From positions 1 through 27,658 of IMG/VR virus record IMGVR_UViG_3300028025_000556: a stretch of 27,658 nt of DNA; one strand, 5' to 3'. This stretch comes from a virus (lineage: Duplodnaviria > Caudoviricetes). Within the stretch, counting starts at the first letter, position 1. Every line of letters starts with the position of its first letter. The notes under the pieces were generated by a model, which saw nothing but the letters and a program-made list of their open reading frames with translations, was not told where the DNA came from and ran no database searches. A program made the translations under genes and the position numbers. Below, in pieces: positions 2,512 through 6,542 of the stretch.

Positions 2512-2916
2512 ATGCAAGACTTATTCGGCAATGAGATACCTGAACAACAAAAGAAAACAGACGAAGGCTTTGATGAATTCTGGTCTGTTTACCCTAAGTG
2601 CTTCAGAAAAGGTGAGAAGGCTGCTTGCAAGAAAAAGTGGGCTGAGTCTTACTACTTTTCTCAGAAGCACATCATCTTAAAACACGTTCAATGGATGGCA
2701 ACCACAACGGCCTGGTTAAAAGATAACGGGGCATTTATTCCAGCCCCTAAGGTTTATTTAAACCAACAGCGATGGGATGGCGCTGACATCCCTGATGTAA
2801 AGCCTAAAGACTTGATAGACCCCGCCCTGGCTAAGATTGAAGCTGATTCAAAGAAGGCCGCACCGATGCCTGATCACATAAGACAAAAAATTGCACAAAT
2901 GAAAGGTAGGTCATGA
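2512..2916 (+). CDS. Replication protein resembling the C-terminal domain of phage replisome organisers, 134 aa
   Basis: FDEFWSVYPK...K...W and FIPAPKVYLNQQRWD motifs; lambda O position; no N-terminal HTH visible. Confidence 0.7.
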   Translation: MQDLFGNEIPEQQKKTDEGFDEFWSVYPKCFRKGEKAACKKKWAESYYFSQKHIILKHVQWMATTTAWLKDNGAFIPAPKVYLNQQRWDGADIPDVKPKDLIDPALAKIEADSKKAAPMPDHIRQKIAQMKGRS

Positions 2917-3739
2917 ATGAGTTGGCTCTTTTCGCAGGCGCTGGTGGAGGAATTCTCGGAGGCCATTTGCTTGGATGGCGAACAGTCTGTGCAGTTGAAT
3001 GGGAACAATACCCCGCAAGCGTACTGTGCGCCCGACAAAATGACGGGCTTCTCCCGCCTTTCCCGATTTGGGATGACGTACAAACCTTTGACGGAAACCC
3101 GTGGCGAGGAATTGTTGACGTTGTATCGGGAGGCTTTCCCTGTACGGACATTTCCATTGCTGGACGAGGCGCAGGGCTTGACGGAGAAAGTTCCTCAATG
3201 TGGTATCACATGGCGAGGGTGGTTAGCGAAGTTAGACCCAGATTCGTATTCGTGGAAAACAGCCCAATGCTCATTCATAGAGGAATCGGGAGAGTGCTTG
3301 CAGACCTTTCCAGCCTCGGGTTTGACACGAGGTGGACTGTTATGGGAGCAAATGAGGTCGGAGCGCCCCATCAAAGGGACAGAACGTGGATTGTGGCGCA
3401 CTCCAGACAGGGGGGGGGGGGGACATCTGGACTTCTCAAACAAGGCCAGAATCATCGAAAGAATGGCCAGCCCATCCAAATCAGATTGGTGGATCAAGTG
3501 AACAATCCAAGACTCTGGCCCACACCAGTAGCGAGAATGTACAAAGACGGGGGAAGCCCAGCGGAATACGCCAGGAACGAGATACCCCTAGCGGCACAGG
3601 TTGGTGGGCCGTTGAACCCAGAGTGGGTCGAGTGGCTGATGGGGTGGCCGCAAGAGTGGACAGACTTAAAGCCATTGGCAACGGACAAGTTCCACAAGTG
3701 GTCGCAGCAGTCTGGAGGAAATTAAGTGAATCACTATGA
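2913..3739 (+). CDS. C5 cytosine DNA methyltransferase, alpha-type chain (motifs I-VIII and X), frame-disrupted at the G13 tract
   Basis: LFAGAGG (I), SGGFPC (IV), VENS (VI), APHQRDR (VIII) in the 2913 frame. Motif X (RLKAIGNGQVP) lies in the 3386..3739 frame. As sequenced, the 2913 ORF ends at 3725. Confidence 0.85.
2917..3725 (+). CDS. Overprinted MTase beta-type chain (WxTP repeats and motif IX), frame-disrupted at the G13 tract
   Basis: ATG 2917 in +1 frame (ATGAATGAG double start behind AAGGTAGG), open 194 codons to 3501. With one extra G it continues into LWPTP...LNPEWVEWLMGWP and stops at 3725. Confidence 0.65.
3410..3422 (+). repeat. G13 homopolymer tract
   Basis: 13 consecutive G; I saw no comparable homopolymer elsewhere in the window. 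Confidence 0.95.
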
Positions 3740-5324: not shown

Positions 5325-6542
5325 ATGCTAAAAATTGTGCAAAAGCCTGTAGATAAATTGATACCTTATGTCAACAACAGCCGCACCCACTCTGATGAGC
5401 AAATAGCCCAGATTGCCTCAAGCATCAAAGAATTCGGCTGGACTAACCCGATATTGGTAGATGGGGAGAACGGCATCATTGCAGGACATGGCAGGCTGAT
5501 GGCAGCAAGAAAGCTGGGCTACAAAGAAGTTCCCACCATCGAGTTAAAAGACCTGACAGAGACCCAGCGCAAGGCTTACATCATTGCCGACAACCGCCTG
5601 GCACTCAATGCAGGATGGGACAATGAAATGCTGACCATAGAATTGAATGATCTATTGGCAGACGGGTTTGCGCTAGAAATCTTGGGCTTTGACACTAAGG
5701 AACTAAACGCCCTGCTAGAGCCAGAGGTAGTGGAAGGGCTGACAGACGAGGATGCCGTTCCTGACATTCCTGATGAGCCTAAGACCAAGTTAGGCGACAT
5801 TTACCAACTAGGCAATCACCGCCTAATGTGTGGGGACTCCACTAGCATTGACGCTGTTGACAAGTTGATGGATGGGCAGAAGGCCGATATGGTGTTTACC
5901 GACCCGCCTTATGGCGTGGCTTATGAAGGTGGACATAATCAAAAGAAACGTAAAGGCATAATTGCTGATACTTTAGAAGGTGATGATCTAACAGGTTTGT
6001 TTTATGGTGCTTTAATGGCTGCTGTACCAAATACCAAGGATGGTGCGGCTTTTTATATTTGGTATGCCTCTGGCAAATCAATAGAAACTTATGCTGCATT
6101 ATCAAAATTGCCACTAAAACTTAGGGCGGTAATTCAATGGTACAAAGTAAAGTCTGGTCTTGGGGCTTTTATGTCTCAATATATTCCAAACTCCGAGCCA
6201 TGTATGTATTTGCATAAAGACAAATGCTCTCCTGCATGGTATGGCCCGACAAATGAAAAAACTGTTTGGGAATTAAAGAAAGAATCAAAAAATATTTATC
6301 ATCCAACTCAGAAGCCTGTTGAATTGCCAGAAAGAGCAATAAATAATTCAAGTAAGGGTGGTGATTTAATCCTTGATCTTTTTGGTGGCTCTGGAAGCAC
6401 ATTAATTGCCTGTGAAAAAATTAATCGTCATGCAAGATTGATGGAACTAGACCCCAAGTATTGCGATGTAATCGTTAAGCGTTGGGAAGACTTCACAGGC
6501 AAGAAAGCCGTTCTTTTGACAGAAACAGTAGAATCTGCTTAA
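5325..6542 (+). CDS. ParB/Srx N-terminal domain fused to an N6-adenine/N4-cytosine DNA methyltransferase (beta class)
   Basis: PYVNNSRTH...FGWTNPIL...IIAGHGRLMAA...ADNRL (ParB); DPPY, HPTQKPV, LDLFGGSGSTLIA; GAGGA RBS. Confidence 0.93.
   Translation: MLKIVQKPVDKLIPYVNNSRTHSDEQIAQIASSIKEFGWTNPILVDGENGIIAGHGRLMAARKLGYKEVPTIELKDLTETQRKAYIIADNRLALNAGWDNEMLTIELNDLLADGFALEILGFDTKELNALLEPEVVEGLTDEDAVPDIPDEPKTKLGDIYQLGNHRLMCGDSTSIDAVDKLMDGQKADMVFTDPPYGVAYEGGHNQKKRKGIIADTLEGDDLTGLFYGALMAAVPNTKDGAAFYIWYASGKSIETYAALSKLPLKLRAVIQWYKVKSGLGAFMSQYIPNSEPCMYLHKDKCSPAWYGPTNEKTVWELKKESKNIYHPTQKPVELPERAINNSSKGGDLILDLFGGSGSTLIACEKINRHARLMELDPKYCDVIVKRWEDFTGKKAVLLTETVESA

Follow-up and report, generated by a model that had tools for sequence, protein, structure and literature searches.

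The locus at positions 2913 to 3739 of the window, a 27,658-base IMG/VR virus record taken at its full length, is an M.EcoHK31I-like overprinted methylase that probably carries a poly-G ON/OFF tract. From comparisons of sequence, we lean, with modest confidence, towards the G-run being a real contingency tract, that is, a switch under selection. The claim of the initial annotation that a G13 run at 3410-3422 crosses both frames of an overprinted two-chain C5 methyltransferase was borne out by the reading frames and by the PF00145 and PHROG matches. The window encodes a P22-type portal, coat genes and a terminase, and the methylase locus is flanked upstream by a replication-initiation-like gene and on the other side by RusA/NinB. 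The parts of the locus are as follows.

2512..2916, + strand: replication-initiation-like gene (phrog_9474, E=1e-13)
2913..3409, + strand: alpha chain, N-terminal part, with C5-MTase motifs I-VIII (PF00145, E=7e-29)
2931-2948 (I), 3129-3143 (IV, GGFPC), 3252-3263 (VI) and 3372-3389 (VIII), + strand: motif positions in alpha
2917..3409, + strand, +1 frame, overprinted: beta chain, N-terminal part, an open frame (phrog_1008, E=7e-10)
3410..3422, + strand: poly-G tract, G13 as assembled, Gly-coding in both frames
3423..3725, + strand: beta chain, C-terminal part, with two WxTP-type variable modules and motif IX (3612-3650), from the beta alignment
3422..3739, + strand: alpha chain, C-terminal part, with a poorly conserved linker and motif X (3662-3694)

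Two overlapping chains and their family

The N-terminal part of alpha matches a profile of M.HhaI (E=5e-17), and motifs I, IV (PC), VI (EN) and VIII (RxR) are present and in order, as expected of a PF00145 C5-methyltransferase. As assembled, frame A runs from the ATG at 2913 to the stop at 3725, and its 270 aa form a chimera in which motifs I-VIII are followed by motif IX; frame B starts at the ATG at 2917 and stays open until 3501 (194 aa). The numbers IX and X are those that we take to apply to the two C-terminal motifs. Motif IX (LNPEWVEWLMGWP, 3612-3650), which is read in frame A as assembled, aligns in register with M.HhaI 269-289 in a weak match that is non-significant alone. Motif X (RLKAIGNGQVP, 3662-3694) lies in a third frame that stops at 3739; this segment matches phrog_32758 (E=5e-16) and phrog_363 (E=2e-10), and residues D250, R251, K253, G256, N257, G258, Q259 and V260 are invariant around it in the alpha alignment. 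The N-terminal part of beta also has invariant residues among 35 aligned homologues. The stop of the upstream gene shares bases with the alpha ATG (ATGA) and lies directly next to the beta ATG (2913-2919), which suggests that the two chains are translationally coupled.

Elsewhere in the window, a second methylase (5325-6542), with a ParB-like domain fused to an N6/N4 methyltransferase, lies just before the terminase genes, and a Sak and YqaJ recombination module runs leftward (102-1282, - strand). A 52-aa rightward ORF (1934-2092, + strand) is presumably Cro-like, and the approximately 115 nt between the divergent ORFs hold no obvious repressor gene.

The same two-chain layout is found in relatives. 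Among 80 homologous loci, most have motif X in the alpha frame and motif IX in the +1 frame, and the division of M.EcoHK31I, with a beta that lies inside alpha in the other frame and holds motif IX and an alpha that holds motifs I-VIII and X, is kept in the in-frame relatives, two of which (L006 and L009) have an alpha of 275 aa and a beta of 269 aa. The beta query matches an estimated 2,300 IMG/VR stretches, and in cultured phages tblastn placed beta homologues beneath genes annotated as MTases (66 records, of which 11 are nearly full-length). Both frames match phage PHROG families labelled DNA methyltransferase, phrog_363 for alpha and phrog_1008 for beta, which the PHROG library does not link as overlapping subunits, and those beta proteins that carry a name are mostly called hypothetical. 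Alpha and beta are predicted to assemble into one C5 cytosine methyltransferase.

Target recognition is probably located in beta, since this chain holds modular WxTP cassettes and the matching stretch of alpha is unconserved in the alignments of the two chains. By analogy with M.HhaI, the WxTP modules are presumably the TRD and the Gly loop a DNA contact. The tract itself sits inside the first WxTP module of beta (WRTPDT-GGGG-TSG). The beta profile gave no match in the PDB, beta matched only hypothetical-protein clusters in the ESM Atlas, and AlphaFold2 models were of too low quality for use (pLDDT 40 for beta and 43 for the chimera of the window). A tblastn search of plasmids with beta returned 6 records, none named M.EcoHK31I.

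In L423, L439 and L444, the same recognition cassette is found in distant alphas with stops upstream in the beta frame; beta starts later in these three, nearer to the M.EcoHK31I layout, and the cassette moves between alpha lineages. WRTPDTG-x-GG also occurs as the second or a later module of longer betas (L400, L415, L448, L455, L459 and L469), from which the WxTP modules appear to be shuffled units. One recorded protein, P0108, is a chimera of the alpha N-terminal part and beta with an interrupted TGAGG loop, which places its shift elsewhere in the gene.

Reading registers and the allele of the window

The G13 tract is the sole G/C run longer than 5 in the whole window, where about 2e-4 such G-runs are expected from base composition. 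The usual cut-off for an in-gene G/C contingency run is 7 or more in the available text on PhasomeIt; the in-gene G13 exceeds it, and its length sets the frame. Frame bookkeeping reproduced the products that the initial annotation had assigned to each register. A 14-nt tract gives an alpha of 275 aa and a beta of 269 aa, and an 11-nt tract gives 274 and 268 aa; a 13-nt tract yields the chimera of motifs I-VIII with IX and a truncated beta, and a tract of 12 or 15 nt yields a truncated alpha and a fusion of the beta N-terminal part with motif X. In the -1 register, motif X is not translated and the WRTPDT of the first module is cut off; in the +1 register, neither the recognition modules nor motif IX is translated. 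Both registers are predicted to be null. The 11-nt (-3) allele, which had also been proposed as repaired, does restore the frames, but it may fall short of full repair, since its loop is shortened: all 20 interrupted alleles among the relatives keep four residues.

The in-frame allele of the relatives is C+G13, read as ...SRHGGGGDIW in alpha and as ...PDTGGGGTS in beta, and plain G14 occurs in none of them; the proposed G14 repair is correct in its 14 nt but not in its composition. An A directly before the run is found in 0 of 81 IMG/VR relatives, where C or T stands instead, and every Logan contig listed over 3410 in the public runs X1, X2 and X5 has C. The G at 3410 of the window is probably a post-homopolymer miscall, in which case the true tract would be C+G12 or C+G13, and the Q-/R-GGGG junction peptides predicted earlier are consequently probably wrong. 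In the best-matching public run (X1), a Logan contig over 3165-3590 with a depth of 138 reads 14 nt, in frame; over this stretch it differs from the window by 4 other letters and 1 gap, and its origin may be a sister strain or the source sample. Because this contig is in frame and the C before the run is missing in the window, the OFF state of the window's own copy is uncertain.

Tract length among relatives and recurrent G-runs

Relatives were collected by two IMG/VR pattern scans without selection on the tract, which gave 81 distinct contigs with both anchors (L098 and L104, in which the downstream anchor is absent, stand outside this set), and tract lengths were read from assembled contigs, which hide minor alleles. 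In the comparison of homologous loci that the initial annotation proposed, 61 of the 81 relatives have a pure run that varies in length, and 20 have interrupted, length-stable codons (G-x-G-G). Relative to the in-frame C+G13, the 61 pure runs are offset by -3 in 2, -2 in 11, -1 in 14, 0 in 19, +1 in 9 and +2 in 6, so that 21 of 61 are in frame, whereas all 20 interrupted alleles are in frame at a single length (Fisher P=9e-8, for assemblies and confounded by dataset number and read errors). A metagenome pattern scan (27 of 64 parts covered) found 22 true homologues among 119 matches; leaving aside L245, whose length and coordinates are those of the window, and L185, which is the same contig as L142, it gave 18 independent pure runs from -4 to +5, 5 of them in frame, and 2 interrupted alleles, both in frame. 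A GTDB pattern scan (8 of 64 parts) gave 0 true homologues among 120 matches and no isolate or prophage copy, and a blastn search of cultured phages with the tract region returned 3 partial matches, none covering the tract.

In a tree built from the flanks, the pure alleles group in a single clade (support 98/100, 72 of 89 rows) with a total length of 2.52 changes per site. At the flank rate, 13 G's should have collected about 33 substitutions, and 1 internal interruption was found (L433). The run likely arose once, from the G-x-G-G loop of the first recognition module. Dual Gly coding as the sole cause of the run was rejected, for 20 relatives use other codons. Apart from the tract, 39 of 41 out-of-frame alleles and 22 of 22 in-frame alleles have no other lesion, and the two exceptions lack the 5' end; this integrity test was not applied to interrupted alleles, 7 of 14 of which it flags owing to insertions or to a beta that starts later. 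Frame states do not cluster on the tree (32 changes vs 33.3 when shuffled).

G-runs recur in this methylase family. In the 80 homologous loci, G/C runs of at least 8 number 21 in 67 kb of gene vs 2 in 211 kb of flank, and the 21 in-gene runs comprise 16 at the focal site and 5 elsewhere. A second site, with a poly-G of G9-G17 just after motif IV, was found in 120 loci (L480-L599, e.g. L482, L498 and L536; about 150 estimated). There, 81 of 116 scorable loci (70%) are in frame, 91 of 92 are dual-coded, and on a tree of weak resolution the run requires 25 gains or losses, no fewer than 3 of them forced. Among 120 sampled exact-G14 runs in IMG/VR (about 370 estimated), 10 belong to this methylase family; the focal site accounts for 6 and site 2 for 3, and the remaining one stands at the end of a contig. 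A third run, a G9 approximately 30 nt after motif I, is seen in L071 and L073, and the recorded protein P0074 is a natural chimera produced via a shift at site 2.

These counts bear on a broader and more tentative proposal, which we hold possible but doubtful: that poly-G switches have evolved repeatedly in overprinted phage C5 methylases (at least 2 sites, about 8% of sampled IMG/VR G14 runs) and toggle both subunits together, which would make them one of the commonest contingency loci in uncultured phages, and that, in a cell with both OFF registers, the complementary halves could restore an active enzyme in trans through their swapped C-termini. The -1 and +1 registers jointly encode all motifs, and their trans complementation is conceivable.

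Slippage, sequencing error and selection

Slippage at the G-run would move the phage between C+G13, the one active register, and two others that are predicted to be inactive. Such a switch supposes that the chains form a heterodimer, that the polymerase slips in the phage and that activity is lost in the shifted registers. Selection would act on it in that methylated DNA passes methyl-blocked restriction, yet is cut by methyl-dependent nucleases. Palindromes are avoided in the window (seen/expected: CGCG 6/106, CCGG 12/89, CGNCG 10/91 and CCNGG 38/114), GGCC, AGCT and GATC are also strongly avoided, and many six-base palindromes are absent, which is consistent with restriction pressure. In an infected cell, every genome would be exposed to the enzyme in trans; consequently, the mixed methylation among progeny suggested by the initial annotation would arise between bursts rather than within one, and methylation would lag behind the genotype.

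The weightiest challenge to a selected switch is that the pure run is real but populations are fixed in frame, the length spread and the frameshift of the window being Illumina, PCR or assembly error in an always-on two-chain methylase. We consider this account rather unlikely. Higher dataset ids go with longer tracts (Spearman rho 0.54 over n=58, P=1.5e-5): ids below 30000 have a mean offset of -1.35, none positive, and ids of at least 40000 a mean of +0.42, where reading the dataset numbers as old, mid and new is our assumption. Moreover, at 16 of 97 loci the sequence breaks off or is garbled in or close to the run (of the 13 that have ids, 10 come from low-numbered sets), and the base beside the run is replaced in several contigs in a manner that resembles post-homopolymer error. 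In the accessible part of PMC8002175, post-homopolymer substitution is a known Illumina error, and error is worse for G/C runs on most platforms. The in-frame X1 contig at depth 138, the in-frame allele as the modal one in the highest-numbered sets (9 of 19 at ancestral length) and the frame state without phylogenetic signal, as random error predicts, point in the same direction, and the intact flanks of the out-of-frame alleles are expected here too. On the other hand, site-2 runs of similar or greater length in the same collection are mostly in frame, and their era trend is opposite (rho -0.27). In the low-numbered sets, 26 of 38 site-2 runs are in frame and only 2 of 38 are at -1, so G10-G11 is readable there; runs of 13-16 are found in none of these sets vs 11 of 38 in later ones, an absence that would fit long runs breaking old assemblies while short alleles survive. 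Site-2 runs of at least 14 G are in frame in 10 of 15 cases (10 of 14 in a Fisher test from which L507, a G17, was omitted). At the focal site, the era trend disappears within the 7 lineages present in both eras (the newer tract is longer in 2 and shorter in 2, and 3 are ties). Error alone would also have to produce a spread of -4 to +5 and out-of-frame lengths that agree within strains (-2 for four contigs and +2 for two), and it leaves the recurrence of G-runs in this family unexplained. Flank-identical contigs tend toward equal length at borderline significance (P=0.059, 6 clusters), and flank-identical pairs within one era differ by up to 3-4 nt. Chimeric proteins are on record in ENA, NCBI and JGI; 7 contigs carry one identical chimera, and 13 carry one in-frame beta. 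We are fairly confident that the length polymorphism is real; technical noise in the assemblies likely adds to it, and error likely explains part of the spread.

Even if the tract does slip, it may be a neutral trap, in which codons for Gly in both frames drifted into a pure G-run that slippage then maintains, and the methylase is so often dispensable that OFF alleles drift. This is improbable to us, although the three frames hold about one third each (21 of 61 in frame, binomial P=0.89), Gly in both frames requires G at all three codon positions by sequence logic, and the two G-run sites each began as a Gly-rich motif, with a single origin for the focal run. Purity of the run is also no proof of selection, because slippage itself can purge interruptions. 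However, the gene would be stabilised by interrupted codons, which 20 alleles show to be tolerated in both frames, yet hardly any occur over 2.5 changes per site; 70% of site-2 loci are in frame, and OFF alleles have not decayed further, a pattern that sequencing error likewise predicts. As for the three functional methylation states by swapping of C-termini that the initial annotation had envisaged, we regard them as very improbable. The swap is real at the level of sequence and natural chimeras are on record; moreover, in the available passages, C5-MTases tolerate splitting (PMC3404938), and C-terminal phase variation is described in Helicobacter canadensis. Nevertheless, the shifted registers lose motif X and WRTPDT (-1) or the modules and motif IX (+1), a separate start for motif X in the -1 state at the internal GTG at 3386 was rejected as unconserved (many relatives have CTG there), and fragment complementation of M.SssI appeared to need an intact small domain in the part of PMC3404938 at hand. 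The selected ON/OFF switch is the reading that we retain, at the modest strength given above.

M.EcoHK31I, to which the locus is likened by layout from descriptions, reportedly comes from E. coli HK31, has the target YGGCCR and is said to have been described by Lee, Kam and Shaw in 1995. Its alpha holds motifs I-VIII as well as X, and its beta, wholly within alpha in the other frame, holds motif IX, according to the portions of PMC2836561 and PMC3404938 available; the motifs are divided between the chains in the same way here. In contrast to M.EcoHK31I, whose TRD the same portions place in alpha, beta here is overprinted on nearly the full length of alpha and contains the variable modules; the gene is also a phage gene with no adjacent restriction gene and has a poly-G tract. 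Another phage DNA methylase with a poly-G that differs between isolates is the adenine methyltransferase bpm of Bordetella phages, with G8 in BPP-1 (AY029185) and G9 in BIP-1 (AY526909) at the same place in GenBank; the run (29922-29929 in BPP-1, 29922-29930 in BIP-1) is the only G/C run of at least 8 in either genome. Unlike the present locus, bpm is a single-frame adenine methylase with a shorter run, two isolates and no overprinting. In the accessible text of bioRxiv 10.1101/2025.10.21.683753, the poly-G of the BPP-1 methylase is mentioned as unstudied, and T2 agt is described as undergoing reversible slippage, shown experimentally, that hedges TgvAB against McrA/BC. T2 agt likewise slips in a phage DNA-modification gene, but through poly-A runs in a single-frame glucosyltransferase, whereas here a poly-G spans two frames and the hedge would be of the kind proposed above. 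The repeat of cj0031 of Campylobacter jejuni is said to be poly-G. Phase-variable ON/OFF methylation by cj0031 alters phage restriction in the available part of PMC4889913; unlike the present enzyme, it is a host-encoded, single-polypeptide, adenine-specific Type IIG enzyme. The novelty claimed for the locus may hold for the combination, as no paper on overprinting together with a repeat switch was found in the open-licence literature, but not for the components, each of which has precedent.

If the spread of lengths were an artefact, long G-runs in metagenome assemblies could mimic phase variation with a one-third in-frame signature. The locus is also an annotation trap, as what gene callers present as a normal methylase is a single frame or a chimera. 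If the switch is real, a very large gene family of uncultured phages would have a heritable on/off switch for methylation of their own DNA, in which one slip governs two overlapping subunits, and bet-hedging by phages between methyl-blocked and methyl-dependent restriction could be tested in it.
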